Assembly: GCA_903912365.1 (NCBI GenBank)
Contig: CAIWGV010000004.1
Span: 11,710-75,709 of the forward strand
Origin: an uncultured Alphaproteobacteria bacterium
GTDB lineage: Bacteria; Pseudomonadota; Alphaproteobacteria; UBA7879; UBA5542
Direction: 5' to 3'
DNA: 64,000 bases
The notes below the pieces were generated by a model. The model was not told the DNA's origin. It saw only the letters and a list, made by a program, of their open reading frames with translations, and did not search any database. The first letter of the stretch is position 1; every line of letters begins with the position of its first letter. This document shows, one piece after another, positions 9,314-34,327 of this stretch. Position numbers and translations under genes: made by a program.

Positions 9314-9796
9314 ATGACCCCAAAAAATACTTGTTTCATCTTATTGGCATTATGTTTAGCGTCTAGAGCTTTTTCAATACCTAGTGATGAAGAAACGTCG
9401 CCGACAAAAAGAACACTTGGTCTTTTTGGAAGACGGCAGGTGCTGGCAGCAGCTAAGAGCGATGCCCAATGCCTTTATCACGAACATATGACAGAACCTC
9501 AAAAAGAACGAATCGTTGCTATTCTTCAAAAGATGGCGGAAGGGGAGAGAAGAGTTTTTATTACTTGTGTTAGGAACATTGAAGAAAACACGATCTTTAT
9601 TAAGGAACCCTTTACAGCCTCCCAAAAACTAGAAATCGCAGAAGTCGTGGGAAAATTTAAACCTGCAGACCGGGAAGCCCGAGTGGAACGCGTATTGGAG
9701 ATACTTCAGAGTCTTAGTTTTGAAGAAGGGATCTATATACCAGGATCTAGGTTCTCCTCTCTTCTTTCCTATTTAGACGACTCTGGATCCCTATAA
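9314..9796 (+). CDS. Hypothetical secreted protein
   Basis: The N-terminal signal peptide is MTPKNTCFILLALCLASRAFS. No recognisable domain is present. Confidence 0.4.
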   Translation: MTPKNTCFILLALCLASRAFSIPSDEETSPTKRTLGLFGRRQVLAAAKSDAQCLYHEHMTEPQKERIVAILQKMAEGERRVFITCVRNIEENTIFIKEPFTASQKLEIAEVVGKFKPADREARVERVLEILQSLSFEEGIYIPGSRFSSLLSYLDDSGSL

Positions 9797-11528: not shown

Positions 11529-12673
11529 GAGACCGGTGTCAAAATATCGTGGTAAACTTTCAAGGTCTTTCTAAACATAGTTTCGTTATCAAATTGATGC
11601 CGCACATTTTTGATGCCCGCATTTCCCATGGATTTTCGTTCTGCTGCCGAGAGGTTCAAAGCATTCTCAATACGCACGGCCAGAGACCTTGAGTCTTCAC
11701 TGGGAAACAGCCATCCAGTTTTTCCATCCTCAATGATTTCCTTAAACCCACCGTGGTCGCTAGCAATCACAATGGATCCCATGGCGCTGGCTTCTGCTGC
11801 CGTTCGTCCAAAAGACTCCGGTTGGGAGGAGGGACAAATCACAAGGCTCGCCAGTTTGTAAAGAGCGGGCATGTCTTTACATTCCCCCACGATATACAGA
11901 CGGTCCCTGAATCCGTAGGTTGTTGATTGTTGTTCCAGCTCATGGACGTAGGCTTTGTTCTTTTCAGCTCCCACGAAAAGACAGATCCAGTCCTTGCGCT
12001 GCAATCGAGAGAGCGCTTCCAGAAGCACCGCATGCCCCTTGAGACGCGTGAGCCGTCCGGGCAACAGAATAATGAACTTATCATCGGGAAGCTGAAGCTG
12101 ATTCATAAGCGCCTCAATGCGGAGTTCCGTTACCCGTTCAGGATCGAAGATATTAAAATCCACACCCCGATGAATGGTGGAAATCTTTTTGGGATTCAGG
12201 CCATATTCCTTCTCAATATGCTGGGCCATGAATTTGGACACGGCAATTACTTTCCGTCCCTTTGTCATGACGCTGTTGTAAAACTTCTTTAGTTTTCCCT
12301 GGAAAGAGTAAGCGCCATGAAAAGTAGTGACCAAGGAAGTCCGGGTTTTCTTGGCTGCAAGGTAAGCACTCCAGGCGGGGGCTCGACTGCGAACATGAAT
12401 AATATTAATATTATGTTTGCGAATGAGGCTGGCCAGACGAATGCTGTTGATCCAAATGGTAAAAGGATTTTTGGAGTTGAGGGGGAGGTATTCGTGGATG
12501 ATTTCATGTTTGCGCAACACGGAAACCAGACGTCCCCCACAGGAGGCAATCACGGGGGACGCCCCTTTCTTTTTCAGAAAGATGGCGAGATCTAGGGCCC
12601 CCCTCTCCACACCCCCCATATCAAGGGCCGGAACAATCTGCAAAACTCGAGGTGTTTTTTTATTTTTATCCAT
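11525..12673 (-). CDS. Glycosyltransferase family 4 (GT1-fold)
   Basis: The N-terminus VLQIVPALDMGGVERGALDLA and the C-terminal EGFG-like block (PESFGRTAAEASAMG) fit GT4. I chose the internal MDKNKK start; the 74-aa N-terminal extension of the listed ORF looks spurious. Confidence 0.65.
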   Translation of the reverse strand: MDKNKKTPRVLQIVPALDMGGVERGALDLAIFLKKKGASPVIASCGGRLVSVLRKHEIIHEYLPLNSKNPFTIWINSIRLASLIRKHNINIIHVRSRAPAWSAYLAAKKTRTSLVTTFHGAYSFQGKLKKFYNSVMTKGRKVIAVSKFMAQHIEKEYGLNPKKISTIHRGVDFNIFDPERVTELRIEALMNQLQLPDDKFIILLPGRLTRLKGHAVLLEALSRLQRKDWICLFVGAEKNKAYVHELEQQSTTYGFRDRLYIVGECKDMPALYKLASLVICPSSQPESFGRTAAEASAMGSIVIASDHGGFKEIIEDGKTGWLFPSEDSRSLAVRIENALNLSAAERKSMGNAGIKNVRHQFDNETMFRKTLKVYHDILTPVS

Positions 12674-12961
12674 AAAATTACTATAATGGCTGTGGATTTG
12701 AAACACAACTTGAAATGCTTTGGAGCCCTCAATCTGTGTCATCATCGCCCAGAGGAGCCTGAAAGAACTACGGTTGGATCGCCGAAAAAATCTTGACGAT
12801 TTCTCCGCGAGGGCGATGGGAAGAGCAACTCTTCTCCACTGAAGCTGGTTAGCCGAGGAGATTAATAGCGAAAGAAAGTTTCCAAATTTCTTCAATTCTT
12901 CTTGAATTCGTTAAGTAAATTCCCGTATATCTTTTTAAGACTTACTCTTCTGGAATTTATA

Positions 12962-15082
12962 ATGATTAAAAATATTTTATTTCTACTGATGATAGGTATA
13001 GGACTTGCTGAGGGGGCAGTTAGCGATCCTTGGGTTCAGCGCATGCGTGGAGATTCTTATTACAAAGGATTTGGGGACCCTCATATTTTACCGGCTCTAA
13101 AACAAATCCCTCCTGAACTCCGAGATTGGGTTGAGCACATAACCATTATTTCTGGTATAAAACTAAAAAAATTCATTAACTCAGAAGAAAGTTACGGCCT
13201 ACATCTGAGAAACTGTGAGGATTGGACAGCGACTTGTATCTCAGTTTTGAACTCTTTAAGAGATCTTCCCGGTTCTTCTCACTCCTGGATAACAGACATG
13301 ATAAAGGCTTATATCCCTGAGGATTGTCCTGCATTTCCTTGCCTTACAACCCTTCATACTTTAGTTAAGATCCCTGTTGAGTCTCAGCAATGGGTAGCTA
13401 GGATGGCGCAAACTTATAGAGATAAAGAAAATTCTCGTCTTCTAAATCAACTGAGAGAAACCCCCATAAATAGTCAAGAATGGGTGGAAGAAATGGCTCA
13501 GTTCCATATCAGAGAAAATTCTGATGCCGCTGCCTATGTATATCATTTAAGACAAGTTCCACCAAGATCTCAAGAATGGATGAAGCGCATGACTCAGCGT
13601 TACGTTAAAAGAGAATATAAGGAAAAGGATGCTCTGGGTATCCTAGAAGTTCTCCAAAAAACTCCTGCTGAATCTCAAGAATGGGTAGAACACATGGTCC
13701 AGACCTATATTAATGAGAGGTGTAGCGCACATAATAGGCATGATATTTTATGGAGTCTAAGCAAAGCTTCTCTTGAAGATAGAGGATGGATTGAGCAGAT
13801 GTCTCAACTCTATATTAAAGGAAGCGATAGCGGAGATGGTCGTGCTATGATTATATATTCCCTAGCACGCATTGAATCTGTTTCTCGGGAATGGGCTGCG
13901 CAAATTCTATCTTTTTTGATAGAATCAGACTGTGACAACACCTATTACACCACATCTAGAGATGGCCACAAGCGATATATAGGAAGTATTGGATGTCCAG
14001 CCTTCGTTATAAGCAAGCTGGAAGAATTATTATCGGATCTTCAATGCCAAGTTGATCTTTTGGAACCAGCACGTGCTCAAATAATGGCAGAATCTAACCA
14101 ATTTAGGGAAAGAAGCCCCTTAAAAGGGGAAGATATTGGAGATATTTTTCATCGAGTAAGTAGAGCTCTTGCCCAACAAGTTCGGATAAATCCAACAGGA
14201 GATAGACCTTTAGGACGCGCTCTTGAAGTCCACTTTGCAGCCTCTCTTCTCGTCCCTGCGGAAGAGAGGACCCAACCTCTTTATAGGGCTGTCGAAACTT
14301 ATATCAATAAGCTAGCTCTATCTCATCCAGTCCCTCTGGAAAGGGCGGTGTCTACACTCCAGGGTTGGGTAGACACATATGCGGATGAAGACAAAAAAGC
14401 TCTTTATCGTGAGACTGTTACAAAAGGGTACGGAGATGGAACAAACCCCGATTACAACCAGGAAATTACGCCTTTATTGCGATTTGTTGTCCCTTACATG
14501 GCAACGCTTCCTGAAACAGTTCTCAGGGCGTGGCTTCTGCCAGTCTTGCAGGAATCTGCAACGGCCTATGATGGAATGAGTCCCCTCAGTTGCGCCAAAG
14601 GGATCCAAGAAAGACTGACCATGTTGGGATTTAATGATTTGGAGGGAGTTGATCCCACTCTTCGGTCTCTCTCTCAATTCTCTCGAACCTTTGTGGGCAT
14701 TACAGACCGTGGCACACACGAGGCTGACACATGGGTGAGAGACGCTGTGGAATTTATAGGTCCAGAGGCAAGATTATTGATTCTGGGGCCAGAAAAACCT
14801 ACAGAAGAAATCTTCAAAGATTTGTTCCCGCCAGCCTTCCAAGCCCTTTCTAAAAGGGCGGGACTCAACCCCCTTTATGCCGACGCTCTTTTAAAAAATC
14901 AACGGATCCAAATGCACCTCAACATAAGCCTTGAGATGTACTACCAAGTGGATACGCATTACCAGACACTCCAGGAACAGGCGAGGGCCTTCCAAACCCA
15001 AGAAGAGAGACGAGAATTTCTAGCGACTGCAGGGACTCGACGTCTTGCGGCAGCAGAAATAAGGAGTCCTGAAGATATTTAG
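12962..15082 (+). CDS. Large secreted repeat protein, function unknown. Its C-terminal region is paralogous to the 23372-24883 product.
   Basis: A signal peptide follows the MIKNILFLLMIGIGLA start. It contains about 6-8 degenerate ~35-aa tandem repeats (xSQEWVxxMxQxY…). A C-terminal block (…PLSCAKGIQERLTMLG…DPTL) resembles the 23372-24883 product. Confidence 0.45.
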   Translation: MIKNILFLLMIGIGLAEGAVSDPWVQRMRGDSYYKGFGDPHILPALKQIPPELRDWVEHITIISGIKLKKFINSEESYGLHLRNCEDWTATCISVLNSLRDLPGSSHSWITDMIKAYIPEDCPAFPCLTTLHTLVKIPVESQQWVARMAQTYRDKENSRLLNQLRETPINSQEWVEEMAQFHIRENSDAAAYVYHLRQVPPRSQEWMKRMTQRYVKREYKEKDALGILEVLQKTPAESQEWVEHMVQTYINERCSAHNRHDILWSLSKASLEDRGWIEQMSQLYIKGSDSGDGRAMIIYSLARIESVSREWAAQILSFLIESDCDNTYYTTSRDGHKRYIGSIGCPAFVISKLEELLSDLQCQVDLLEPARAQIMAESNQFRERSPLKGEDIGDIFHRVSRALAQQVRINPTGDRPLGRALEVHFAASLLVPAEERTQPLYRAVETYINKLALSHPVPLERAVSTLQGWVDTYADEDKKALYRETVTKGYGDGTNPDYNQEITPLLRFVVPYMATLPETVLRAWLLPVLQESATAYDGMSPLSCAKGIQERLTMLGFNDLEGVDPTLRSLSQFSRTFVGITDRGTHEADTWVRDAVEFIGPEARLLILGPEKPTEEIFKDLFPPAFQALSKRAGLNPLYADALLKNQRIQMHLNISLEMYYQVDTHYQTLQEQARAFQTQEERREFLATAGTRRLAAAEIRSPEDI

Positions 15083-15981: not shown

Positions 15982-16968
15982 ATGAGATATTTACTTCCAA
16001 AGTCCTGGTCTAAGATTCTTTTTATTTCTTCAATTTGTATCGTTGTGTTTGTGGCCCTCGTTTTTATGAGGGCTTTCTTTTTGATGGACCTTTCCAAAGC
16101 GCCCCTTGAAAATCAAATTACGGCACCCGTTTACCTGATCTCGTACGCAGATGGTCCGGAAGTTTTCCACAAAAACCGAAAGATGCTTGTTTATTCAGGA
16201 TTGCAAAAAGGAGTCAGTCACTTTTTCAATTATAAGAAAGATATGATTGATCCCAAATTTTTAGAAAAACATAAAGACACCTTTTCTAAAAAGCATGGGG
16301 CAGGGTATTGGATCTGGAAGCCCTGGGTCATTCAAGATGCGCTGAAGAAAATTCCTGAAAACGCCTATGTATTTTATTGTGATAGCGGCTTTGTTTTTAA
16401 AGGGGATGTGAGCCCCATCCTAGATCTTCTCAAAACAAAGGACATGGTTCTTATGACCTATACGAATAAGGAACTCTATGGTCCCCTCAGTAAAACCACA
16501 AAGGAAGAAGCCTTTATAAAAACGGGATGTGATACCCAAGAATGCCGGAATTTTTATCTTCTGTGGGCGGGGATGATTTTCATGAAAAATACGCCTGCCA
16601 CCCGAAGCTTTATCCAGAAGTGGCTTACCTATTGTGAGGACCCCGAACTTTTGGGACCGGAATCAAAATATCTCCCCTCCCGTCATAACTATGATCAGTC
16701 CTTATTAGGGGTTGCCTATTACAAAAATCCCCAGCATATCGCTCTGGTTCCAGAAGAGGAGATTGCAGACAATAATATTTTTAGGTGGCATCATCGTCAC
16801 TCAAGTAGGGAGAGTGAAAGCCTTTTCTTTGATTATGAAAAGATCAGGGGTGTTGAGCGCCGAGTCATTAATAATGGCATTTTTAAAACCCTGGCCAAAT
16901 GGGTTTATAAGTTTTCAGAGAGCAAGCCTTCTGAGGGGCGCTCCCTTACGGTTATCTCAAGGGATTGA
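15982..16968 (+). CDS. Membrane-anchored protein of unknown function (tandem paralog 1)
   Basis: An N-terminal TM helix is present. The conserved blocks YLISYADGP, GAGYWIWKPW, YVFYCDSGF, MKNTPATRSFIQKWL and AKWVYKFSESKPS are shared with the next gene (about 60% identity). Confidence 0.45.
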   Translation: MRYLLPKSWSKILFISSICIVVFVALVFMRAFFLMDLSKAPLENQITAPVYLISYADGPEVFHKNRKMLVYSGLQKGVSHFFNYKKDMIDPKFLEKHKDTFSKKHGAGYWIWKPWVIQDALKKIPENAYVFYCDSGFVFKGDVSPILDLLKTKDMVLMTYTNKELYGPLSKTTKEEAFIKTGCDTQECRNFYLLWAGMIFMKNTPATRSFIQKWLTYCEDPELLGPESKYLPSRHNYDQSLLGVAYYKNPQHIALVPEEEIADNNIFRWHHRHSSRESESLFFDYEKIRGVERRVINNGIFKTLAKWVYKFSESKPSEGRSLTVISRD

Positions 16969-16976
16969 AATAATAA

Positions 16977-17954
16977 ATGAAGCGCCTATTTTTCAAATAT
17001 TGGGGTAAGACTCTATTAATTTTATCTATGGGAATTCTGGCATTTATTGCTTTTGTTTTTATACGACTGTTCTTTTTAATGGATCCGTCCGGAGCCCCCT
17101 TGGAGACAGATGAATTAAAGGAACCCCTGTATCTTATTTCCTATGCAGATGGGCCAGATGTTTTTCACAAAAATCAAAAAATACTAGCTTATTCGGCCCT
17201 AAGGAAAGGAGTTAGTCATTTTTTCAACTATAAGAAATATATGATTGATCCTGAGTTTTTGGAGAACCATAAAGAAACTTTTGCCCAAAAAAGTGGAGCA
17301 GGATATTGGTTGTGGAAGCCTTGGATCATTCAAGATGCCTTAAAGAAGATCCCAGAAAATGCCTATGTTTTTTATTGCGACAGCGGTTTTTTAGTTAAAG
17401 GGGATGTACGACCCATACTAAGTCTATTGAAGAAAAATGATATGGTTCTTGTTGCTTATACCAACAAGAAGATGTTTGGAACTTTAGGCCAAAATGTAAA
17501 AAAAGAAGCCCTGATAAAAATGCACTGTAATGAAGAGAAGTGCCAAGATTCTTTCATGATTTGGGCAGGAATGCTTTTCATGAAAAATACGCCTGCCACC
17601 CGGAGCTTTATCCAGAAGTGGCTTGCCTATTGTGAGGACCCAGACTTGCTATGGCCTCAAGGGAAAGACTCCAAGTCTCATCATCATTATGATCAGGCCC
17701 TCCTCAGTGTGACTTATTATAAAAATCCAAAGCATATTACCCTAGTGTCAGATGAAGATGTTTGTGACCATATTCTTAAATGGCATCACCGTCATCCGAA
17801 CGACGAATATACCCTATTTTTCCATAATGATAGAGTTAGGGGAGTGGAACGAGATCTTCTTCATACCAGGGTTTTCAAGACCATAGCCAAATGGGTTTAT
17901 AAGTTTTCAGAGAGCAAGCCTTCCAAAAGCCGTCCCCTTAAACCGGTTTTTTGA
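16977..17954 (+). CDS. Membrane-anchored protein of unknown function (tandem paralog 2)
   Basis: It is a paralog of 15982-16968 and starts 8 bp after that gene's stop. Confidence 0.45.
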   Translation: MKRLFFKYWGKTLLILSMGILAFIAFVFIRLFFLMDPSGAPLETDELKEPLYLISYADGPDVFHKNQKILAYSALRKGVSHFFNYKKYMIDPEFLENHKETFAQKSGAGYWLWKPWIIQDALKKIPENAYVFYCDSGFLVKGDVRPILSLLKKNDMVLVAYTNKKMFGTLGQNVKKEALIKMHCNEEKCQDSFMIWAGMLFMKNTPATRSFIQKWLAYCEDPDLLWPQGKDSKSHHHYDQALLSVTYYKNPKHITLVSDEDVCDHILKWHHRHPNDEYTLFFHNDRVRGVERDLLHTRVFKTIAKWVYKFSESKPSKSRPLKPVF

Positions 17955-19514: not shown

Positions 19515-20871
19515 AACCCTCTCGTCCCTCATCATAGGGATTCTTCCCCTTTCGCGGAATAAGTCTCAACGGGATGCCTCCCAACCGAAAATCTTCCGCC
19601 AGGCGATTTTTCAGATAGCGTAGATAGCTTTCAGGCAAATCCAAAGGTTTATTGATAAATAAAACAAAGGTGGGGGGGCGTGACTTGATCTGGGTCATGT
19701 ACCGAATCTTGATTCGGCGCCCGGAGACTAAGGGCGGCGGATGATGAGTGGTAGTGGCGATCAACCAGTCATTTAAAGGGGACGTGGAAATGCGCTTCTC
19801 CCAAAGGGGATAAAGCTCGAACAACTTCTCAAAAATCTTTCCCAGATCCTTCTTGTTCAAGGCAGATACCGCCACCACAGATGGATGCGGCAATTGGGCA
19901 AGCTCTTCGCCCAGTTTCAGGCGCATTTCTTTCAGAAAAGCATCCTTATTCTCAATCAAATCGATTTTATTGAAAACAAAAAGCAAAAGCCGACCTTCCT
20001 CCACCACTTGGCGCGCGAGGGTCAGATCTTGTTTTTCGAGAGGCATGGTGGCATCCACCACCAGAAGCACCGCTTGGGCGTACTGCATGGCGCGGGCCGT
20101 ATCCGCAGCGGACAAGCGCTCCACACTTTCTGTGATGCGGGCTTGCCTGCGCAGCCCTGCCGTATCGATGAGCTTGAGGGAGTGATCCTGCCAGGTAAAA
20201 TCTACCGCCAAGGATTCCCGGGTGAGTCCCGCAATGGGGCCCGTAAGAAACCTTTCTTTACCGACAATCTGGTTGATAAGGGTAGATTTTCCCACATTGG
20301 GACGCCCAATGACCGCGATGCTCAGGGGGGGGGATACAGAGTCTTCCGGTTCCTCATGGGGGAGGGCGTCATAGAAAGGCTGCAATGCTTCGTAGAGCAT
20401 ATTAAATCCCTCTCCATGCTCGGCAGAAATGGGGATGGGGGCCCCAAGTCCCAGAGAGGCTGCCTCAAAAACCGTGGAACGTGCCGCATTTCCTTCCGCT
20501 TTATTCACCAAAAAAATGCAAGGCTTGTTGAGTTTGCGCAGCAAACTCCCCAGGGCTTTATCTTGAAGAGTAATGCCTTCGCGCCCATCCACAATAAATA
20601 AAATCACATGGCATTCTTTCAGGGCTTCCTGAGTGTGATGCCAAAGCCCGTGGAGAATAAGTTCTTTGTCTTTTGGAATATAGGCGGTTTCAAGTCCAGG
20701 GGTATCCACCAGATCGAAGGAAAGATCCCCAATGGATCCTTTACCATAGCGGCGGTCTCGGGTAATGCCTGGTTCATCGTGAACAATGGCTAATTTTTTT
20801 CCCGCCAGACGATTGAAGAGGGTCGACTTCCCCACATTAGGTCGGCCCACCAAAGCTACGAGCAGAGACAT
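19513..20871 (-). CDS. der: Ribosome-associated GTPase Der/EngA
   Basis: Tandem G domains (GRPNVGKST twice) and a KH-like C-terminus are present. Confidence 0.9.
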   Translation of the reverse strand: MSLLVALVGRPNVGKSTLFNRLAGKKLAIVHDEPGITRDRRYGKGSIGDLSFDLVDTPGLETAYIPKDKELILHGLWHHTQEALKECHVILFIVDGREGITLQDKALGSLLRKLNKPCIFLVNKAEGNAARSTVFEAASLGLGAPIPISAEHGEGFNMLYEALQPFYDALPHEEPEDSVSPPLSIAVIGRPNVGKSTLINQIVGKERFLTGPIAGLTRESLAVDFTWQDHSLKLIDTAGLRRQARITESVERLSAADTARAMQYAQAVLLVVDATMPLEKQDLTLARQVVEEGRLLLFVFNKIDLIENKDAFLKEMRLKLGEELAQLPHPSVVAVSALNKKDLGKIFEKLFELYPLWEKRISTSPLNDWLIATTTHHPPPLVSGRRIKIRYMTQIKSRPPTFVLFINKPLDLPESYLRYLKNRLAEDFRLGGIPLRLIPRKGKNPYDEGREG

Positions 20872-22971: not shown

Positions 22972-23370
22972 ATGTCTAAATTATTCCAAGTTATTTACTT
23001 TAGTTTCTTTGTGGCATGGGCTATGGCCGCTGGGGCAGCCCATCAGGATGCTATACTCCAAGAAAGAGCCGCACAAAACTATGCACATTTTGAAAGAGAA
23101 GTAGGACAAATTTATGAACAAAGTCGTCATGTAACATATAGCGATTTTGCTTCAGCAGTTGACCTCGCTCAGAAAAACATTAAGGATTTTTTTGATAAGA
23201 GAATAAGGGAGGGAGGTTCAGAAGCCAACCGTAAGGACTGCATGGAGCAAAAAAAGAATCTAATAGAAAATCTTAATAGGAATCTTTTGGAACAAGAATG
23301 GAAAAAACTGCAAGTCTTATATCCCAAGCGAGAAGAGCAAGGATTGATTTTAAGCGTAGCCATAGAATGA
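22972..23370 (+). CDS. Hypothetical secreted protein
   Basis: The signal peptide is MSKLFQVIYFSFFVAWAMAAGAA. Confidence 0.4.
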   Translation: MSKLFQVIYFSFFVAWAMAAGAAHQDAILQERAAQNYAHFEREVGQIYEQSRHVTYSDFASAVDLAQKNIKDFFDKRIREGGSEANRKDCMEQKKNLIENLNRNLLEQEWKKLQVLYPKREEQGLILSVAIE

Positions 23371-23371
23371 T

Positions 23372-24883
23372 TTGAGACGCCCCCCTTTTTCTGCGTTGAG
23401 CAGCAAATTCTTTTCTGGCCTTTCTAGTTATAGAAAAGAAGGATACGACGAGAATTTTCCTATTATGTGGGCCCCTCAAGGATTAAGTGTTGTGGCTTTG
23501 TCTCACGCTGTTTCTATCTCTGATTTTCGAAACCCTCATGAGATAGCGAATTCTATAAAAAATGACGTGATCTGCCTAAAAGGCTTGACCCCAGAAATTT
23601 TTAAAGAGCTTTTTTGTACCAACTTCTCTTCGGGAAATCCTCTTGAAAAAGTGGCCGAGAATATGACGCGATGGGACTTAGGTCAAAACATACGGCTTCC
23701 GCCTGAACGTTTGGAATGTTATATGACATGTCTATATGAACTTCGTGTGATAGATCTAGCTTCTCGCGATAGAAAAGAAATGAGTTTGGCTTTATCCGGC
23801 GCTTCTCCAGAGAAAAGAGGTTGGATTATAAACAAGATAAGAAGGGGAAGAGAGGGGTTTGGGCGCGTACCAGAAGGGAAGTTTATTCAATTGATCTCAT
23901 CTCTGATCGATGACCCACATTTGACTGAACAAAAAGTTGATCAACAATTTAATCGGCTGATGGATGCACATCGTCCCATGCCTCTCATGCTTCATATGCC
24001 CCAGCATCAAGGCTCCACCATGAGCATTGCGATGGAGGCTCATAATTATGCAGATCAAAAAGTGGATGTTCCAGGGGCTGCCTGCGCTGCAGGAGCCTCT
24101 AGTCAAATGAGGGTCATTGATGCTGTCTTTGGGCAAGTAGAAGGCCGTCTGGGAGCCAGAGCCATAGTTCCATTTTCTGAGGTTCATGCTGCATTGGGAA
24201 GATTCTCCTCAGCTCCTGCATTCCAGAGTGTATTAGAGAATCCCGCAGATCAAGACCTGATGGCTATCATTTACACTTTCTTGAAGGCATTCTATCCAGA
24301 CAAAGTTGATTTATGGAAAGCTCAGTTCATACGCGAATCAGAAGAGGCCTATAGAGGAAGACGTGATCCCACCAGTTGTGTAAAGGGAATTAGAGAACGT
24401 ATTATTACAGGGCTTCGGGGAATAGATTCAGAACTGGATCGAACCTTTGCGCAGGTGGAAGGTCGTCATTTGATGCGCGCCCGCGCAACAGGAGCCAACC
24501 CTCGAGAAAACCCACAAGCACTTGCGCGCCAATTGTTGGAGTTGGGTATTCGACCCACAACACCTGTTGCAAAAGCAGCGGCTCGCTTTAAATCGGACTT
24601 CGAGGACAAACTGAAGACCTATGGGTTGGAAGTAGATGCAGAATTCGAGGGGCAAGCAGATATCTTTGTAGAGCTTATTGAAGGGGAGCTGGAGAATGCG
24701 CAGAGTGCTTTGAGTCAAGCTCTGAAATCAGAGTTTAATAAGGGGAATTGGAAAAAGGCATTTAAAGCGATTAAAAAGCAAAACAGGGAAGGGCTTGTCC
24801 CGGCAGAGGAAACCCCCGCACAGCGTCGGGCTCTTTTGGCTAAGGCTGCCGCAGACCGTCTTGCAAGGACTTATCCAAGCTGA
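23372..24883 (+). CDS. Large hypothetical protein, paralogous (C-terminal region) to the 12962-15082 product
   Basis: The block …YRGRRDPTSCVKGIRERIITGLRGIDSELDRTF… aligns with …YDGMSPLSCAKGIQERLTMLGFNDLEGVDPTL… in the other protein. The start is uncertain (TTG at 23372 or MWAPQ at ~23465). Confidence 0.4.
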   Translation: MRRPPFSALSSKFFSGLSSYRKEGYDENFPIMWAPQGLSVVALSHAVSISDFRNPHEIANSIKNDVICLKGLTPEIFKELFCTNFSSGNPLEKVAENMTRWDLGQNIRLPPERLECYMTCLYELRVIDLASRDRKEMSLALSGASPEKRGWIINKIRRGREGFGRVPEGKFIQLISSLIDDPHLTEQKVDQQFNRLMDAHRPMPLMLHMPQHQGSTMSIAMEAHNYADQKVDVPGAACAAGASSQMRVIDAVFGQVEGRLGARAIVPFSEVHAALGRFSSAPAFQSVLENPADQDLMAIIYTFLKAFYPDKVDLWKAQFIRESEEAYRGRRDPTSCVKGIRERIITGLRGIDSELDRTFAQVEGRHLMRARATGANPRENPQALARQLLELGIRPTTPVAKAAARFKSDFEDKLKTYGLEVDAEFEGQADIFVELIEGELENAQSALSQALKSEFNKGNWKKAFKAIKKQNREGLVPAEETPAQRRALLAKAAADRLARTYPS

Positions 24884-25463: not shown

Positions 25464-26216
25464 TTACCTGACTGCTGGAATAGTTTTAAAATTGGTCACA
25501 AAATGGCCATTTTTGTGCTGGGTCGGCATATATTTCCCATCCACTTCACGTACGCTCGAAATTAATTGATATAATCCTACGTCTTTGCGGTAGGCCTCTT
25601 CTGGATCTTTATTGGAGAAATCTTTACAGCGTTCAAAAACAACCACGCTCCCGACGGTTAAGCCTGATCGATTGAATATGTCTTCAGGAATATAACCATA
25701 GTGTTGGGGGGCTAAATTATTTCCAAAGGGAGGACTGTTTGGATTCGAATGAATCTCTCCTACTACGGCCCCATGAACGGGATCTTGCGCCAAGATCACG
25801 CCTCTGTAATTGACCGCTATTTTTTTATACGAGGATCCCCACGGAAGTGTTTTCTTGACCTCATCCTCGAGATCCCTTTCATTTAAAGAAATTCCTGGTG
25901 TGGGGGGCACTAGATTATAATACACACCTGTCAGACCCGGCATCATTTGGAGAATTTCTATTCTCTCTTGTGGCGTTGCTTTCACAAAAAGAATTGCAAG
26001 TGCGGTGTGTTGAGGTCCCCAAAGAGCACTCAACTCCCTCGCCAATTTGGCCTTTGTAAAATCTTTTGTAAAATTTTCATTGAGGGATCCATTTTTCCAA
26101 ACCAAAACGGAGCCAGCATGGTTTTCTACCAAAGGGGACCGAGAGCTGCCTTTAAAAAAATGGGCCCCTGCCCCCAGACTCACGAGTATTAAAAAGAAAA
26201 AAACCTTAAGTTTCAT
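25464..26216 (-). CDS. Hypothetical secreted protein
   Basis: A signal peptide follows the MKLKVFFFLILVSLGAGA start. No recognisable domain is present. Confidence 0.4.
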   Translation of the reverse strand: MKLKVFFFLILVSLGAGAHFFKGSSRSPLVENHAGSVLVWKNGSLNENFTKDFTKAKLARELSALWGPQHTALAILFVKATPQERIEILQMMPGLTGVYYNLVPPTPGISLNERDLEDEVKKTLPWGSSYKKIAVNYRGVILAQDPVHGAVVGEIHSNPNSPPFGNNLAPQHYGYIPEDIFNRSGLTVGSVVVFERCKDFSNKDPEEAYRKDVGLYQLISSVREVDGKYMPTQHKNGHFVTNFKTIPAVR

Positions 26217-26423
26217 CGGCTCCCCCAAATTTTTTTATATAGGTTAATTCTACTTAATAACTCTAAAACTGTAAATTCTTTTGTGGGATTTCTCCTTTGG
26301 AGCCTATTCATCTTATGGGCAAAGTCGCCGTGCAAGCCTCATAAGGAGGCATTTCTACAGGCATATGATTGAGAGTTGTAATCATTTTCTAAATCTACTA
26401 AAGTCCTTTCAGAAACCCAAGAA

Positions 26424-28112
26424 ATGGAGATAAATATGAACGGGCCGATTTTTCTAATCCTTTTGATTGTATCTGTATTTTTCGAAACCTCCCATGGGGC
26501 TTCGGCGGCAGAAGAACAGGGGGACCTTCAGCGGTTTCAGAGAGAAGTTGTGGATAGGCAGTATGTGCCCATCTTTTCTGTGGCCGATTCTCGGGAACTG
26601 GATGTTATTACGAGAAATTTAGACTCTAAAGTCTGGCCCATTCTCCCCACGTCCCATCGATTTGAGCAAAGAGACAAGAAGTGGTGTATCACAAAGCATC
26701 GAGACGCGCCGGGAGCAGATTTGCATTTATATGCTTTTGGGGAAGATGCTCCCCAGAGTGTTAACTACGTGGTGCAGTCTTATGGGAGGACCACTTATAG
26801 TTATGCTCAGACTTTAAAAGATGACTGTAAGTTTTGTAAAAATAAAGTTCCCTTTGTCGTGGAACAAATTAGCTACATGGATGGGCACTGTATTGATCAC
26901 AGAGACACACGCCCTGAAAAGTTGGGAAACTATTATTGGCAAAATTCTTCTACTCATTCGACAAATCATATCCCTGAACCCCCTGGGAACTATTGGGGGC
27001 TAACTTGTAGAAATGCTTTGGTTAAAGACTTTAGAAAAAGGTTGGAGGGATACAGTCAGTGGGTTTTTTATCCCTCTAAACCACTTCTGACAACTAAAAA
27101 AATCCCCATTCCCATGGGAGTCCTTTTCATGCAACATGAAGCAGAGTCCTGGGAAATAATAAATGGATGGTCCATTCCTTGGGCAGATTCCCTGCACCGG
27201 TCCTCTGCAGATGAAGGACATTATCTAACTCAGCTGAGAAAATATACCCTAAATCATCACAGCCAGTCGGAAGCCCGGAAAGATCTTTTAGGTATAAGAG
27301 ATCGCTTTTTTCCGAAAACCTTTGTATATGAAAAAGGCCGATTGGATGAAAAGATTTTTGGAAGGGCGCTGAAGGTCCCGGAAACCCTGGATAATCCCTA
27401 CAGTCAATTCTCTCTCTATCGCATGGAAACCTTGGCTGACGAGGAAATCGTCCCTTCTTGGTCCCCCGCCACATTCGGGTTTTTTCTAGACCAGATGGAA
27501 CGGCACAAAGGCGACCCTTATTTTCGAGAGAAAACCGATTATTGGCAGAAACGGTTTACGAGCCGATCGGAATCTCTCCGTAAAAATGACTTCTCCAAAA
27601 TCATGGCCGGGGATGTGGCCATCGACACGCTCATTCAAAAGGTCCAAAGAGCGGAAAGTTTTGATGCGGATGATCGGGTGCAAGACCATCTGAGGCAGCT
27701 TAAATCTCATTCGGAAGTGAAACAAGAACCAGCGGCAGCTCCCCGGGTTGGTCCCTATGAGGATTACGAAAGACCAGTTGTTGTCGAGGTGGCCGCTGTA
27801 GCTCCTCAAGTCGAGCCTTCCCGTCCTCTAAAAATAACCTTTGGAACTGGAAAGGGTTCCCTTGAAACCTTAAAATCTCCTCTGCATGAGGACGAATTTC
27901 GGTTTCCCCGAAATCTTTCCTTGGAGATAACAGAGCGAGATCCTGGCTCTATTACAAGAAAGGTTAGCGCGTGGACTACGGCGAATAAAAGGATTTTAGA
28001 GGTGGCTTTAAGCAGGGGAACCATTACTGAATTTAGGATCGTAGGAAACATTTCTTCTGTTGCTCAAAAAGAGTTGAGGATTTTATTTGGTAGCAAATTT
28101 AAAGAAAACTAA
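26424..28112 (+). CDS. Hypothetical secreted protein (562 aa)
   Basis: The signal peptide is …PIFLILLIVSVFFETSHGASA. The start codon and first codons lie in an ~80-bp block duplicated from the fosA-like promoter and start region. Confidence 0.45.
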   Translation: MEINMNGPIFLILLIVSVFFETSHGASAAEEQGDLQRFQREVVDRQYVPIFSVADSRELDVITRNLDSKVWPILPTSHRFEQRDKKWCITKHRDAPGADLHLYAFGEDAPQSVNYVVQSYGRTTYSYAQTLKDDCKFCKNKVPFVVEQISYMDGHCIDHRDTRPEKLGNYYWQNSSTHSTNHIPEPPGNYWGLTCRNALVKDFRKRLEGYSQWVFYPSKPLLTTKKIPIPMGVLFMQHEAESWEIINGWSIPWADSLHRSSADEGHYLTQLRKYTLNHHSQSEARKDLLGIRDRFFPKTFVYEKGRLDEKIFGRALKVPETLDNPYSQFSLYRMETLADEEIVPSWSPATFGFFLDQMERHKGDPYFREKTDYWQKRFTSRSESLRKNDFSKIMAGDVAIDTLIQKVQRAESFDADDRVQDHLRQLKSHSEVKQEPAAAPRVGPYEDYERPVVVEVAAVAPQVEPSRPLKITFGTGKGSLETLKSPLHEDEFRFPRNLSLEITERDPGSITRKVSAWTTANKRILEVALSRGTITEFRIVGNISSVAQKELRILFGSKFKEN

Positions 28113-28621
28113 CCCCGCTCCGACAAATAAATGGCCAATCGGCACCCTGTTTTGATCATCTGTTTAAAGGTCCTGTACTTCTCTCCTCCCAAATCCTGGG
28201 CCTCTTCTTTATGCGCCAACTCCTCTTGATGGCACGTATGAATTAGGGCTTTTAAATCTTTCTCGGGAGACTCTTTCAAAGCCACAAGTTGGGCGGCATA
28301 ATGTTCATCGATAGCTTCTTCCACGGCCACCGTACAGGCCAGGGCCGCCTCCTTTCCCAACAAGGCAGAGGCCACGCCTAAAGCGTAGGAGGCCCTGTGC
28401 CAAAGGGGTTGAAAGGCAGTGGGCGCAATGTTTCGGCTCACCCTTTCTGCTTCAAATTTTGCGAGATGCCCTTGTTCTTGCATGAGCATATGTTGGAGCG
28501 TGGGGGCGAGGGAGGATTCTCCTAAGACTCTTAATTGTCCTTCATAGATTCGCACGGCCGCTGATTCTCCAGCGTGATTGACGCGAACCATGGATTTAAT
28601 GTCTAGAGTTTTTTTCAACAA
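28109..28621 (-). CDS. coq7: Demethoxyubiquinone hydroxylase (ferritin-like di-iron, COQ7 family)
   Basis: VRVNHAGESAAVRIYEGQ and the EE…H di-iron motifs are present. Confidence 0.7.
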   Translation of the reverse strand: MLKKTLDIKSMVRVNHAGESAAVRIYEGQLRVLGESSLAPTLQHMLMQEQGHLAKFEAERVSRNIAPTAFQPLWHRASYALGVASALLGKEAALACTVAVEEAIDEHYAAQLVALKESPEKDLKALIHTCHQEELAHKEEAQDLGGEKYRTFKQMIKTGCRLAIYLSERG

Positions 28622-28662
28622 GCCTTCTCTTTTTCGTCATCAGTGGGTGGAAAGACCGGGGC

Positions 28663-29133
28663 CTACCTTCTAAAAATCCCATACCCACAAATCCCGGCCA
28701 GTCCCCCGGACACAGCCAAATTCCAGAGAGCCAAGGGAGCTCCCAAAACATTAAAGGGAGATCTATCGCAAGGGGTAATTGTGTCGCTGGCGAGCAGGGC
28801 CTCTGTGGAGCTAAAAAAAGGTTTTGTGCAGAGAGTAGGAATATCTAGCCAATGGTAAACAATAGCCAAATGGTAGGCGCTTAAAACCACACTGCCCAGA
28901 AATACACCCAAAAGCAGCCAGAGTAGCGCTCGAAAGGGAGAGTAGATTCCTATCAATCCCAAAACGCCTGCCAAACCATAAGGGATCCGCTCTAAAAGAC
29001 ACAAGTTACAGGGAGGGGTATCAAATACATATTCCACGCCAAAAGTGGTGGCTAAAATGGCGGCACTAACAGCACAAAAAAATAGGAATAAATACAGGGG
29101 TTCCCAGATGCCTTTCATAAACGTTCTCCTCAA
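28663..29133 (-). CDS. DsbB-like disulfide bond formation protein
   Basis: A 4-TM membrane protein carrying the PCNLCLLER Cys pair. Confidence 0.55.
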   Translation of the reverse strand: MRRTFMKGIWEPLYLFLFFCAVSAAILATTFGVEYVFDTPPCNLCLLERIPYGLAGVLGLIGIYSPFRALLWLLLGVFLGSVVLSAYHLAIVYHWLDIPTLCTKPFFSSTEALLASDTITPCDRSPFNVLGAPLALWNLAVSGGLAGICGYGIFRR

Positions 29134-31289
29134 CTTTTTTTCGTTACAAAACTATGGAGAACTTTCTTCAATCCCGAATGTTCAAAGTTAATGAGCAACC
29201 GGTCCATCTCCACCTCTTTCACAATGCCGTATCCAAACTTTAAATGGAATACCCGCTCTCCCAACTTAAAAGGGGCAGAGGGAATCACCAAGGTTTGGGT
29301 CACTGGGGCAGAAGGCCTTGAAACGGGTCGAAACCCACCGCCTCCTCGGTTAAAGCTATTTTCTAAAAAACACACGTATTGAGCGGGCAATTCATTAATA
29401 AATCGAGAGGGCATATTGCTTTGCCACTGACCATGGATGCGCCGGTTGCTGGCAAAGGTAATATACGCATTCTTTTTGGCACGGGTGAGGGCCACGTAAG
29501 CCAGCCGCCGCTCTTCTTCCAGCTCCGTATTGGATTTTTCCATGAGGGTGCGCTGAGAGGGAAACACCCCTTCCTCCCATCCGCTCAAAAATACCAGATC
29601 AAACTCCAATCCCTTGGCCGCGTGCATGGTCATGAGGGTCACTGCTTCATTGGAGGCCGTCTGGGCCGTTTCTGTCACCAAACTCACATGCTCCAAGAAA
29701 CTTTCTAAATCTTGGAACTCTGCAATGGCCACCACCAATTCTTTGAGGTTCTCAAGACGTCCCGCCGCGTCTGGGGATTTATCCGCCTTCCACATGTCCG
29801 TGTACCCGGATTCATCCAAAATAATTTTCACGAGCTCATCGGGAGAAGTATTGAGGCTTTGTTTATGCCACCGATCGATATTCTCCAAGAACTGCCGCAG
29901 AGAAAGGCGGGTCTTTCCCTTAATTTCATCCGTCTCAATAATCTGTCGCGCCACTTCCGCCAAGGGAATTCCTTGGGATCTCCCCACCATATGCATCTTT
30001 TGTACGGTAGTCAGACCGATGCCTCGGCGGGGTAGGTTAATGACCCGTTCAAAGGCCAAATCATCTTGGGGCTGGGCTGCGAGCCTCAAGTAAGCCAGAG
30101 CATCCCGGATTTCTTGCCGCTCATAAAATCTAAGGCCGCCCACAATGCGATAGGGAATAGCCAGCGCCAGGAAGGTTTCCTCAAATTCCCGGGTTTGAAA
30201 TCCCGCCCGCACCAGAATGGCCATCTGGGACAAGGGCGTTTCTTTCCGGTGGAAGAGGGTAATTTGATCCGCAATCCACCGGGCTTCTTCTGCTCCATCC
30301 CACACGTTCTTGATGAACACAGGGTCTCCCTGGGACCGATCCGTCCAGAGGGTTTTGCCTAGGCGTCCTTTGTTATGACTGATGAGGCCCGACGCGGCGC
30401 CCAATATGGCCGGCGTTGACCGGTAGTTTTGCTCAAGACGAATAACTTTGGCACCGGGAAAATCTTTTTCAAACCGGAGGATATTGCCCACCTGGGCCCC
30501 CCGCCATCCATAAATGGACTGGTCATCATCCCCTACACAGCAAATGTTTTTGGATTCAGACGCTAGCAATCTTAACCACAAATATTGGGCCACATTGGTA
30601 TCTTGATACTCATCCACTAGAATATATTTGAACCGCTTGGCATAGAGGCTCAGTACATCCGGATGCTGTATAAAAATGGTGAGGCAATGGAGCAGCAAAT
30701 CCCCAAAGTCCACCGCATTCACAACCCGCAGTCGCTCTTGGTAAAGCTCATAAATGCGGAGGATCGTTTTGGAATTTGTGGATCCTAAATACCCATCCGT
30801 TACTTTATCCGGCGTGAGGCCCCGGTCCTTCCACCCACTGATGACGCTCAAGAAAATCTTGGTAGTTTCCTTTTTGTCCTCAATATTCTCCATCTGCAAA
30901 AGTTGCTTGATGATGCGTTCTTGGTCATCCGTATTGAGGATGGTGAAGTTGGAGGAAAGCCCCACCAAATTTGAATGACTGCGCAAAATGCGGGCGCTGA
31001 TGGAATGAAAGGTGCCTAGCCACATACCGCCCAGGCTTTGTCCGATGAGATCCGCCGTGCGATTTTTCATCTCGAGGGCTGCTTTATTGGTGAAGGTGAC
31101 GGCAAGGATCTCAGATGGTAACGCTTTGTGCTTTAAAAGAATATGCCCAAGCCTAGAAATCAGGACACGGGTTTTTCCCGTTCCGGCACCAGCGAGCACT
31201 AAAACAGGACCCTCCGTCTCCTCCACCGCCTGGCGCTGGGGGAGGTTCAAAGAGTCTAAATGAGAGGACGGCACATCAACGGACATCAT
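29130..31289 (-). CDS. uvrD: ATP-dependent DNA helicase, UvrD/Rep/PcrA family
   Basis: Walker A VLAGAGTGKTRVL, the DEYQDTN helicase motif II and the C-terminal helicase motifs are present. Confidence 0.9.
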   Translation of the reverse strand: MMSVDVPSSHLDSLNLPQRQAVEETEGPVLVLAGAGTGKTRVLISRLGHILLKHKALPSEILAVTFTNKAALEMKNRTADLIGQSLGGMWLGTFHSISARILRSHSNLVGLSSNFTILNTDDQERIIKQLLQMENIEDKKETTKIFLSVISGWKDRGLTPDKVTDGYLGSTNSKTILRIYELYQERLRVVNAVDFGDLLLHCLTIFIQHPDVLSLYAKRFKYILVDEYQDTNVAQYLWLRLLASESKNICCVGDDDQSIYGWRGAQVGNILRFEKDFPGAKVIRLEQNYRSTPAILGAASGLISHNKGRLGKTLWTDRSQGDPVFIKNVWDGAEEARWIADQITLFHRKETPLSQMAILVRAGFQTREFEETFLALAIPYRIVGGLRFYERQEIRDALAYLRLAAQPQDDLAFERVINLPRRGIGLTTVQKMHMVGRSQGIPLAEVARQIIETDEIKGKTRLSLRQFLENIDRWHKQSLNTSPDELVKIILDESGYTDMWKADKSPDAAGRLENLKELVVAIAEFQDLESFLEHVSLVTETAQTASNEAVTLMTMHAAKGLEFDLVFLSGWEEGVFPSQRTLMEKSNTELEEERRLAYVALTRAKKNAYITFASNRRIHGQWQSNMPSRFINELPAQYVCFLENSFNRGGGGFRPVSRPSAPVTQTLVIPSAPFKLGERVFHLKFGYGIVKEVEMDRLLINFEHSGLKKVLHSFVTKKS

Positions 31290-31457
31290 CCCCCAGGTAT
31301 ATCATATTTGGAGGTTTTGTCGCGAGGGAAATGTGGAGGACCTGTTTTTTGGTAGTTTTAATTTTTGGTAGTTTTGCAATTTTAGAATAGTGAAAAATTC
31401 AACTTGACAGTCTTATTAGTTCTGTTTATTAGTTCTTTTATAAAATAGGAGTTCTTC

Positions 31458-32362
31458 ATGAAAAATATTGGCTTGTTTCTTGCTTCCACAGTATTAATTT
31501 TATTCTCGCAAAGTTACGGAAATTTTTCTGATTACAATCTTCCCCCAGAATTTCTTGGAAGAATATACTCGCTGAAACAAGCTCCTAAAGAGGAAGATAA
31601 GCAAGTGAAACAATTAATAGAAAGACAAATAGAGCTTAACAATCATTTCCTGTTTCAAACGGCAGAGATTCGTGCGTCAGATCCTGAAGGATTGTTGAGT
31701 TTTTTAAAACCAGATACTCAGCTCGAAGATTCCTCAGGAACACTTATTACTTCCGAACAGGTGGACAAGGGTTCCCGTGGAGAGATAAACAAGGTTTTAC
31801 CTGCCCTGGAAAGTTTTGCCCTTAAAGTTAAAAAATTGTCAGATGAGCTTTATCGCAGGCAGAGAGAGCTTCCTTATTTAGAGTCTAGAATTCCTTTGCT
31901 TTATTCCGGGGGGGGGGGGGGGCCGCGAGATTCGATGATTTTGTTCACCCAGATTATAGAAAAAACAAAGATGGTCAGCTTAAAAATGCCGAAGAACTTG
32001 AGGGTTTTGTTCGAGATAAAATTGAATTGTACAACTCAATTTGTGAAACTTTAGGATTTCTTAAAATCCCCCACTATAGATTTGATGAACCCTTCATAAC
32101 GAAAGAAATTTTTGTTGAAGTATTGAAGACCGTATTTCCTCCAATTTGTTTCAGCTCAGATGGAAAAATTTTCCTCATGAACTCCGATTGTTCCGATAGA
32201 GTGGACAACCTGGTAGTCAATGCATCTCGTGCTTTTGTCAACTTAGGTCAATCTAGTAAAGTGGGAGAGTCCGATATCACCCATTATTTTCAACGTCTTT
32301 TGGAAAGTTGGCAAAGACGTCTTCCCCTAACAGCAGTAAAGGGAGAGGGGCAAGGAAAATAG
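31458..32362 (+). pseudogene. Secreted protein gene interrupted by a G15 slippage tract (frameshifted as sequenced; candidate phase-variable gene)
   Basis: A signal-peptide ORF (31458-32054, frame 0) and an ORF open from 31889 to 32362 (frame +2) overlap at the G15 run. Setting the tract to 16 G (+1) or 13 G (-2) gives one ~300-aa product. Confidence 0.5.
31908..31922. repeat. Homopolymeric G15 tract
   Basis: Fifteen G counted directly, giving the GGGGG codons of the upstream frame. Confidence 0.9.
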
Positions 32363-32365
32363 GCC

Positions 32366-33079
32366 TCAGTAAATCCCCAGCTTTGCCTTTTCTTTTGCCG
32401 GGAATCGATAGAGACCTTTTCGCTCGGATACATCTTCTGTCAAGAGGGGAAATAGATTCACGGGCATAAGGATTTCCTTCAGAATCTGATCCCCTTTCTT
32501 TGTAAATCGTACCAGGTGTTGGTCTATCTTGGTGCCCAGGGGGGCCACAAGACGGCCCCCTTTCTTCAGTTGATGAAAAAGAGATTTTGGGATTTCATCA
32601 AGCCGGGAGCTCACAAGGATTACATCATAGGGCGCATGATTGGTCCATCCTTTGGCGCCATTGTGGTTTGAGAGAAAAACATTCTCCAAATCATACCTTT
32701 TAAGTCGACCTTTCGCGGCGTTTAAAATATCCCCCACAATCTCCACACTATAAATCTCTTTTACCAGTCCCGAGAGCAGGGCCGTTTGGTATCCAGACCC
32801 CGTGCCGATTTCCAAAACCCGGTCTGAGGGACTAAGCTTCGCCGCTTGTAGAATAGAGCCTACCAGAGAAGGGGGCTCCATCATTTGACCATGGGGGAGC
32901 GGCAAAGATTTATCCATATAGGCCATGTAGCGAAAATAATCATCTACAAAAGAATGCCGGGGCACCTCTCTCATGGCCCTTAAGACTGGGGGGTTTAAAA
33001 CTTCATTTTCTTTCTCACATTTTTGGACCATTTCAAGTCGACGGTCCTTCAAATTATCTAGTTCCATGTCTACCTCCAT
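32366..33079 (-). CDS. pcm: Protein-L-isoaspartate O-methyltransferase
   Basis: SAM-binding motif VLEIGTGSGYQTALLS, plus VPRHSFV. Confidence 0.8.
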   Translation of the reverse strand: MEVDMELDNLKDRRLEMVQKCEKENEVLNPPVLRAMREVPRHSFVDDYFRYMAYMDKSLPLPHGQMMEPPSLVGSILQAAKLSPSDRVLEIGTGSGYQTALLSGLVKEIYSVEIVGDILNAAKGRLKRYDLENVFLSNHNGAKGWTNHAPYDVILVSSRLDEIPKSLFHQLKKGGRLVAPLGTKIDQHLVRFTKKGDQILKEILMPVNLFPLLTEDVSERKGLYRFPAKEKAKLGIY

Positions 33080-33164
33080 AACAAAATGTTTTAAGTTTGT
33101 TCAGAAGATATTATCCAGAATTAAAAATTTTTTCTAGCCTTTTTTTTAATAAATTTTAACCGGT

Positions 33165-33749
33165 TTATTCCTCCAAATATCCTCTCAAGGAATCCAGACC
33201 TTTCTGTATTCTTTTAGTCTGCCTTTCGTCTTTCAAGATATCTTTGAGGGAGCTTAAAGAAGAATCTTCAATAAGAGAGTCCAGAAGAATTTTTGAATTG
33301 GTTTCTATTAAAAGCCGATTTAAATCGCGCCATAATTTTTCTTCTTTCTCCCATTTTTCTTCATTTCTTAAAAAGGGAAGGGGAACGTGGGCAAAGGGTT
33401 TTCTTTCAAACGTTCCAAGATTTTCATCTAAGGGCACCTGACTTAACTTAGGGCCCGAGGACAAATTTTTCCGCATTAGATTCAGATAGGTATTTGCTGC
33501 TTGGTACATATCTGGCGTGATGATGTCTGTCAGCAACAAAAGATGTAACGCTGTCCCAGACCATAAGTCATCATTGAAAAAAGGAAGGGGACAATGGTGG
33601 CGGAGTTCTTTTAGAAAGGAGTGTCGATGGTGAAAGATTGAGTGTTTTTCGGGGGGAAGAGGAGGAAGAGGAGAAAGTAGTTTTTTAAGAGGACGGGCAG
33701 TTTTTGGGTTTCGTCTGGACTTTTTCTTACGAGTAGTGTCTATGTTCAT
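33165..33749 (-). CDS. Hypothetical protein with strongly basic N-terminus
   Basis: The N-terminus is TRKKKSRRNPKTARPLKK. There is no signal peptide and no recognisable domain. Confidence 0.35.
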   Translation of the reverse strand: MNIDTTRKKKSRRNPKTARPLKKLLSPLPPLPPEKHSIFHHRHSFLKELRHHCPLPFFNDDLWSGTALHLLLLTDIITPDMYQAANTYLNLMRKNLSSGPKLSQVPLDENLGTFERKPFAHVPLPFLRNEEKWEKEEKLWRDLNRLLIETNSKILLDSLIEDSSLSSLKDILKDERQTKRIQKGLDSLRGYLEE

Positions 33750-33886
33750 TTTTGTATTTCTCCCTTTCTATTAATGAAAACATAGAGTCAATAAATAATA
33801 TAAAAAATTAAAAAAGTCTATAGGAAGAATAAAAATTTTTTGCATTAAATTAATTGATTGTATAGAGTAAAGAAAATCAAAACTTT

Positions 33887-34327
33887 ATGGAGAATAGTAT
33901 GAAAAGATTTAGCCTTATCTTGATGATGATAGCGACTGGTTTTGGAGAGTCTTCTTTCGGGGCACCTTACGTGGATGAAAAGAAAGATAGGTTGGGTCGC
34001 GTTGCGGCTCTACGACTTGCTCTCCCGGACGCGGAACTTCCCCGTGGACTTAAAAGAAGGGCGCCAAGCCCAGAGGCAGCAGAGGAAGTCCCTTTTCCAG
34101 AGTTAAAGCGCGCTCGGAGTGCCCCTGGGTCTGGGGGGAGAAAAAAGGAAAAAAACTTACAAAAAAGCCCCAGAAAACTCCAAGATGTCCTGAATCTTTT
34201 TCATGAGTTAAAGAAGCAAGGATCTCCGAAAAAAGAAGAATTGCTGGACCGCTTAGATGGCCTTCCCCTTGTGGCTCCAAAAGCCCAGAAAGGGTCTAAT
34301 CGGAATCTTTCTGGCAAGTTGAAATAA
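33887..34327 (+). CDS. Hypothetical secreted basic protein
   Basis: A signal peptide is present and the C-terminus is Lys/Arg/Pro-rich. Confidence 0.35.
   Translation: MENSMKRFSLILMMIATGFGESSFGAPYVDEKKDRLGRVAALRLALPDAELPRGLKRRAPSPEAAEEVPFPELKRARSAPGSGGRKKEKNLQKSPRKLQDVLNLFHELKKQGSPKKEELLDRLDGLPLVAPKAQKGSNRNLSGKLK

Follow-up and report, generated by a model that had tools for sequence, protein, structure and literature searches.

Between uvrD and pcm, the window (by which we mean the whole 64,000-nucleotide stretch of DNA that was analysed) carries a plus-strand gene of about 300 codons, the reading frame of which breaks at a run of 15 guanines. On one side of the gene lie uvrD (29130-31289, minus strand), dsbB, and COQ7; on the other lie pcm (32366-33079, minus strand), two orphan ORFs, lipA, and pyruvate-dehydrogenase genes. 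The elements of the locus are as follows.

31333-32364, plus strand: lineage-specific segment (promoter region and gene), between the upstream region of uvrD and the stop codon of pcm

31346-31438, plus strand: upstream region with two local direct repeats, found by repeat search, and a TTGACA

31447-31451, plus strand: Shine-Dalgarno-like AGGAG, 6 nt before the ATG, read from the sequence

31458-31520, plus strand: predicted Sec signal peptide MKNIGLFLASTVLILFSQSYG, with N as the next residue, recognized by inspection of the translation

31458-31907, plus strand: N-terminal half of the gene, 150 codons in frame 0

31908-31922, plus strand: poly-G tract, G15 in the window and G14 in other public assemblies of the same organism

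31922-32362, plus strand: C-terminal half of the gene, 146 codons and a stop in the +2 (= -1) frame

31923-32054, plus strand: out-of-frame tail, 43 codons in the G15 allele (198-aa product) and only REIR and a stop in the G14 allele (159-aa product)

The identity of the host can be read from the neighboring genes. UvrD is 94% identical to its counterpart in L003, a MAG labeled 'uncultured Holosporaceae bacterium', and 62 to 70% identical to those of other Holosporaceae and alphaproteobacterial MAGs, which places the window in an uncultured member of the Holosporaceae, a family whose members live inside protists as symbionts. None of the 185,579 GTDB representative genomes belongs to this species, and the best UvrD match among them is 94% identical. 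In L003, the closest species, the synteny lipA-orf146-orf194-pcm-uvrD-dsbB is kept, but the spacer between pcm and uvrD measures about 180 bp versus 1,032 bp in the window. Indeed, blastn aligned window positions 32365-34260 with L003 positions 7880-9779 and window positions 28094-31332 with L003 positions 9958-13145, and the spacer alignment with L003 held no remnant of the gene. Since more distant relatives lack synteny on that side, gene gain and gene loss are not distinguishable.

The tract itself, flanked by TTATTCC and CCGCGAG, is an outlier in the window, where G runs comprise 16 of G6, three of G7, one of G9, and then this single, uninterrupted G15; with the longest C run at C9, it is the only G/C run of more than nine in 64 kb. 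At a G frequency of 0.24, the calculated chance expectation is about 3e-5 runs of at least 15 G in 64 kb, so the tract is not a compositional accident. Nowhere else in the 64 kb did we find a locus disrupted at a homopolymer. The C9 (19431-19439) is intergenic, in an inverted repeat downstream of der (engA), and the G9 (20325-20333; C9 on the coding strand) is an in-frame part of der, where it is read within ...SPPL.... The longest A/T homopolymer of the window, an A10 at 10333-10342, sits inside an intact beta-carbonic-anhydrase ORF (9870-10610; Pfam Pro_CA), and ten is a run length at which transcriptional slippage is known at A runs. Cut-offs for phase-variable poly-G tracts have been set at 7 or more, with experimental support from 8, and the G15 exceeds every published one (PMC6321876). 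It is likewise longer than the poly-G/C of at least 7 to 8 expected of a phase-variable simple sequence repeat (SSR) locus, and it lies within an ORF in which the gain or loss of a unit decides whether the product is full length or truncated.

Translation of the locus bears out much of an earlier note on this DNA, made from the sequence alone. Its count of 15 consecutive G at 31908-31922 was reproduced, as was its frame-0 ORF (31458-32054, 198 aa, ...LLYSGGGGGPRDSMILF...), which starts at 31458, reads the tract as GGGGG, and stops 43 codons past it at 32054. The +2 frame is open as described, from 31889 to the stop at 32360-32362 (...GGGGAARFDDFVHPDYRKNKDGQLKN...), but its continuation counts 146 codons from 31922 rather than the 147 aa given there. 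Swapping the tract length in silico showed that G13 yields one 300-aa ORF and G16 one 301-aa ORF, in agreement with the prediction that either length would fuse both parts into a protein of about 300 aa; G14 yields 159 aa, ending in ...GGGGGREIR and a stop, and G15 yields the 198-aa product that lacks the C-terminal half. The gene is thus OFF as sequenced, as had been claimed. The junction peptide of the ON product would be LLYSGGGG(G)AARFDDFVHPDYR, and the OFF products end in ...GGGGGPRDSMILFTQIIEK or ...GGGGGREIR. The placing of the tract in the 5' half of the gene did not hold: it occupies codons 151 to 155 of about 301 and is therefore located mid-gene.

The N- and C-terminal halves are one coding sequence, with the frame break exactly at the tract. 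Their codon-position GC contents are nearly superimposable (0.49/0.33/0.32 for the N-terminal half and 0.50/0.33/0.32 for the C-terminal half). By a log-odds codon score for which the remaining genes in the window served as the training set, the N-terminal half scores +0.19 bit/codon in frame 0 (-0.31 and -0.42 in the other frames), and the C-terminal half scores +0.20 in the +2 frame (-0.22 and -0.65 in the others). For the C-terminal half, the calculated probability of 146 open codons arising by chance in DNA of 38% GC is about 4e-5. No start codon for this half lies near the tract. Its first one, a TTG, comes at 32027 and is taken by some gene callers as the beginning of a 111-aa fragment. 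Accordingly, gene callers split the locus into 198 + 111, 198 + 61, or 159 + 61 aa. Over about 300 AT-rich codons, the frameshift at the tract is the sole lesion. A join of unrelated sequences, whether chimeric or a poly-G artefact, was ruled out by the common coding signature of both flanks, by the pcm and uvrD synteny in the sister species, and by the reproduction of the junction by several assemblers.

Signals for expression and export precede the tract. A -35-like TTGACA at 31404-31409 is followed 17 nt further on by TATTAG, both as read from the sequence, and a scan for consensus promoters called none upstream of the gene. The TTGACA, the AGGAG, the ATG, and the signal-peptide-like N terminus are all intact. 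The stretch MKNIGLFLASTVLILFSQSYG followed by N has the layout of a Sec signal peptide, with a basic n-region, a 13-residue hydrophobic core, small residues at -3/-1, and no lipobox cysteine. This N terminus, recognized by inspection, makes export of the roughly 300-aa protein probable, whether to the periplasm, to the cell surface, or into the host. Ahead of the gene we also noted direct repeats, with TTTTTGGTAGTTTT present twice at 31346-31375, 16 nt apart, and TTATTAGTTCTKT twice in tandem at 31413-31438; neither motif has another occurrence within the window, and they may represent sites for a regulator or small duplications caused by slippage. At the other end, the stop codon (32360-32362) faces the convergent stop codon of pcm (32366-32368) across 3 bp, leaving no room for a terminator between them.

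The gene product has no recognizable relatives in any of the collections searched. Pfam, NCBIfam, PHROG, and PDB-sequence searches gave no match, a word-indexed search of 5.8 billion proteins returned no relative, and an exhaustive phmmer search of 1.84 billion representatives recovered only the gene's own fragments, P0001 (159 aa) and P0004 (61 aa), and one spurious match. The latter, P0005 (HMMER, E = 8e-6), is a repetitive, eukaryote-like coiled-coil protein aligned over a 38-residue helical stretch only, and it was rejected as compositional. In JGI metagenomes, a protein scan revealed no relative and a scan with 23 nt of the upstream flank no further alleles, and neither the window nor 80 related loci yielded a paralogue when searched by tblastn with the fused protein. 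Run without an alignment, AlphaFold2 produced no confident structure, with a pLDDT of 38 when given the fused protein and of 44 when given only the C-terminal half. By these searches the gene is a species-specific, low-GC ORFan, a status that means selection on the full-length product cannot be demonstrated.

In its base composition the gene departs from its neighbors, with a GC content of 39% and a GC3 of 32%, versus 47 to 50% and 48 to 57%, respectively, for pcm and uvrD (uvrD GC3, 57%). It falls in the same class as numerous other low-GC3 ORFs of the window (GC3 of 0.32 to 0.43; 9314-9796, 12902-15082, 22972-23370, 23372-24883, 25464-26228, 26424-28112, 33165-33749, 33887-34327, 45397-46308, and 52809-54281), most of which have signal-peptide-like N termini. 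A Pfam domain was absent in 8 of the 10 ORFs tested, including all 8 of these low-GC3 ORFs that were tested. Between orthologues of the window and L003, identity is only about 59% for orf194 and orf146, versus 94 to 95% for uvrD and lipA. The low-GC3 set looks like a fast-evolving exported or effector-like repertoire. Elsewhere in the window, two similar ORFs of about 325 aa each lie in tandem (15982-16968 and 16977-17954). Both carry a membrane anchor at the N terminus, and the former matches the mainly eukaryotic galactosyl transferase family GMA12/MNN10 (Glyco_transf_34) of Pfam, below threshold.

The earlier note had proposed comparing tract length between related genomes, and this comparison proved informative. 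An exact look-up of ten possible products in a collection of 15 billion proteins found the G15 product (198 aa) on three contigs and the G14 product (159 aa) on three contigs; the products of G10, G12, G13, G16, G17, G18, and G19 were absent from that collection. Among about six public contigs there was hence no ON length (G10, G13, G16, or G19), G14 and G15 both being OFF. Two contigs, L001 (ERZ27313292, a 79.8-kb k141 contig) and L002 (ERZ18639024, a scaffold from SAMEA6872855), are 100% identical to the window, G15 included. G14 is found in L083 (ERZ18638863, a 99.6-kb scaffold from SAMEA6872854), and a 2.6-kb contig of ERZ1426634, known from its protein only, encodes the 159-aa product. 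At the level of assemblies, G15 occurs in at least three that come from different pipelines (ERZ27313292, ERZ18639024, and the Logan assembly of ERR4193932) and G14 in two. SAMEA6872854 and SAMEA6872855 share a common study label and differ in tract length.

The alignment of L083 with the window spans 20,481 bases and contains 25 substitutions but only one indel, G14 versus G15; within 20 kb of sequence that is otherwise clonal, length thus varies at the tract alone. The variation in length that characterizes a phase-variable SSR locus is therefore present, as seen in consensus short-read assemblies. All 25 substitutions fall in 24254-24669 (415 bp, about 7 kb from the tract), inside the ORF at 23372-24883 (plus strand, 503 aa, no Pfam domain), where they account for 16 synonymous and 7 non-synonymous codon changes; this patch looks like the recombination import of a diverged allele into a clonal background. 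The Logan assembly of ERR4193932 divides the locus between two contigs: L085 spans the G15, shows a G>T mismatch 20 nt downstream of it, and ends 30 nt after it, and the other begins at 31923, the first base after the tract. This break looks like an unresolved graph at a length-heterogeneous or error-rich site, and it is what reads with differing tract lengths would produce.

A tract that is polymorphic in length, a gene that is split at this tract, and two halves that form one coding sequence are what a slipped-strand switch predicts. We assign a probability of roughly one half to the reading that the locus is a hypermutable, contingency-type poly-G switch in an exported accessory protein of an uncultured member of the Holosporaceae. 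During replication, the G tract would gain or lose one G by slipped-strand mispairing. Cells with G13, G16, or G19 would make the full-length protein (ON), and cells with G15 or G14 would make the 198- or 159-aa product, both without the C-terminal domain (OFF). Since a change by a single G would bring either G14 or G15 to an ON length, each population is expected to include ON cells as a minority, and the mix of ON and OFF cells would constitute a contingency-type, bet-hedging switch acting on an exported accessory protein. This reading takes the length difference to be biological rather than technical, and it presumes that a functional ON form exists and that switching is selected. In phase-variable loci both ON and OFF lengths occur, with reversible switching at about 1e-5 or more per division; the genomes concerned typically carry several such loci (a 'phasome'), the products of which typically act at the surface or in host interaction. 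The phase-variation switch proposed in the earlier note thus gains the G14/G15 polymorphism, the unity of the two halves, and the Sec-like N terminus, but only OFF lengths have been found.

This last observation would also fit a recently inactivated ORFan, that is, a pseudogene. In this account, a lineage-specific accessory gene would have gained or developed a long G run, been inactivated by slippage, and begun to drift; its tract would vary because runs of such length are inherently unstable, with none of the states functional or under selection. That no ON allele was found is nevertheless weak evidence, because only two independent lengths are available and an ON length would be missed by chance with a probability of about 0.44. 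The pseudogene account also draws on the lack of a homologue in the searches, on the absence of the gene at the syntenic site of the sister species, on a low GC content like that of many other ORFans of the window, and on the young pseudogenes that reduced symbiont genomes commonly carry. Set against this, the start signals and signal peptide are intact, an uninterrupted 14- to 15-mer is an extreme outlier where other G/C runs stop at nine, and one frameshift, with no other lesion, is all that disrupts about 300 codons. The latter point is weak given near-clonality: because the sampled population is almost clonal, missing secondary lesions are uninformative. The searches gave no orthologue for comparison, and the strains are too similar for dN/dS. 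We hold inactivation to be possible but somewhat doubtful. It is improbable, in our view, that the true tract is in frame (G16 or G13, for example) and the gene intact, with G15 and G14 arising from PCR or cluster stutter and poor base-calling, although Illumina platforms are prone to errors in homopolymers this long. The samples were probably sequenced with the two-colour chemistry of the NovaSeq, a platform deduced by name only from the label 'BUCK21-1' (Buck et al. 2021); the StratFreshDB lake metagenomes to which this label would link them were sequenced on the NovaSeq 6000 and assembled with Megahit (PMC8121793). Given such chemistry and PCR stutter, errors of ±1 are plausible. The assemblies do disagree by one base, the break and nearby mismatch in the ERR4193932 assembly point the same way, and the authors who described chlamydial poly-G tracts raise the same sequencing caveat (PMC4488443). 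Against a miscall, however, G15 and G14 are each reproduced across assemblies, the former by different pipelines, and an in-frame length is given by none. Furthermore, the G9 in der and the intergenic C9, which are useful internal controls for homopolymer error, were assembled identically in L083 and in the window, with no other indel in the 20 kb.

Alternatively, full-length protein could be made from the 'OFF' DNA by recoding, either through -1 ribosomal frameshifting on G GGG GGG or through RNA-polymerase slippage. We consider this very improbable. The downstream frame of the G15 allele is the -1 frame, and tRNA-Gly should re-pair perfectly on a G run. Yet G GGG GGG is slippery only formally. 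A programmed site would also call for a stable stimulatory RNA structure 5 to 9 nt after the heptamer, and no such structure was predicted, the 131 nt of 31860-31990 being less stable than their shuffles (z = +2.2). Moreover, G15 needs a -1 shift and G14 a +1 shift, so no single programmed event fits both alleles, and the frame relationship is not conserved between them. A precedent for polymerase slippage comes from insect endosymbionts, in which transcriptional slippage at long poly(A) runs rescues frameshifted genes. The run at our locus is of G, however, rather than an A/T run of at least nine, and transcriptome-wide data assign all homopolymer insertions to A/T runs and none to G/C runs, described there as not prone to slippage (PMC5574713).

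Returning to the contingency switch, phase variation at SSRs is textbook knowledge for mucosal pathogens. The locus resembles the poly-G/C genes of Campylobacter jejuni, Neisseria, and Helicobacter in having an uninterrupted in-ORF G run above the supported threshold, one-base changes that toggle between a full-length and a truncated product, a product that is probably exported or surface associated, and a tract length that differs between near-identical genomes. Unlike those genes, with their usual 8 to 11 residues, it carries a longer tract, located mid-gene; its host is an uncultured intracellular symbiont of protists rather than a mucosal pathogen; and here we see one locus in 64 kb, OFF lengths only, and a gene without homologues. 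Poly-G tracts have also been described in the coding regions of the pmpG family of Chlamydia pneumoniae and C. trachomatis, with frameshifted and in-frame lengths reported or suspected (PMC4488443). There, as in our case, an obligate intracellular bacterium has a poly-G tract inside the gene of an exported or, in our case, probably exported protein, and the caveat about sequencing is shared. However, the Pmps are autotransporters of a large and conserved family marked by GGA(I,L)/FxxN motifs, whereas our protein has no detectable family or motifs and its host is an alphaproteobacterium. The slippage-rescued genes of Buchnera and Blochmannia are similar in that an endosymbiont gene has as its only lesion a frameshift in a long homopolymer, but their tracts are poly(A) or poly(T) rather than poly-G.

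To our knowledge, phase variation is hardly documented for intracellular symbionts of protists; among the top-ranked full-text literature matches for Holosporales together with phase variation or homopolymeric tracts, nothing treated the subject. We tentatively suggest that this may be the first contingency locus in the Holosporaceae or in any protist endosymbiont, in which a tract of 13 to 16 G would stochastically switch a free-standing, recently acquired exported protein among three heritable states (full length at 300/301 aa, 198 aa with an alternative tail, and 159 aa with the N-terminal domain alone) and through which the symbiont would hedge its interaction with the host, a view that we hold with clear reserve. 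More speculatively, tract length might also modulate transcription or translation through a G-quadruplex, 15 G being the shortest homopolymer able to fold into one with three tetrads. Should the gene prove to be a young pseudogene or its frameshift a miscall, it would be nothing unusual and would serve chiefly as a warning for MAG annotation. The locus also illustrates that public metagenome assemblies can directly reveal tract-length polymorphism of this kind. If the switch is real, this orphan exported protein would be one that the symbiont gains from displaying only part of the time, and it could then lead to a factor of host interaction in a lineage that is still uncultured; the traits hedged in this way might include invasion, recognition, or killer traits.
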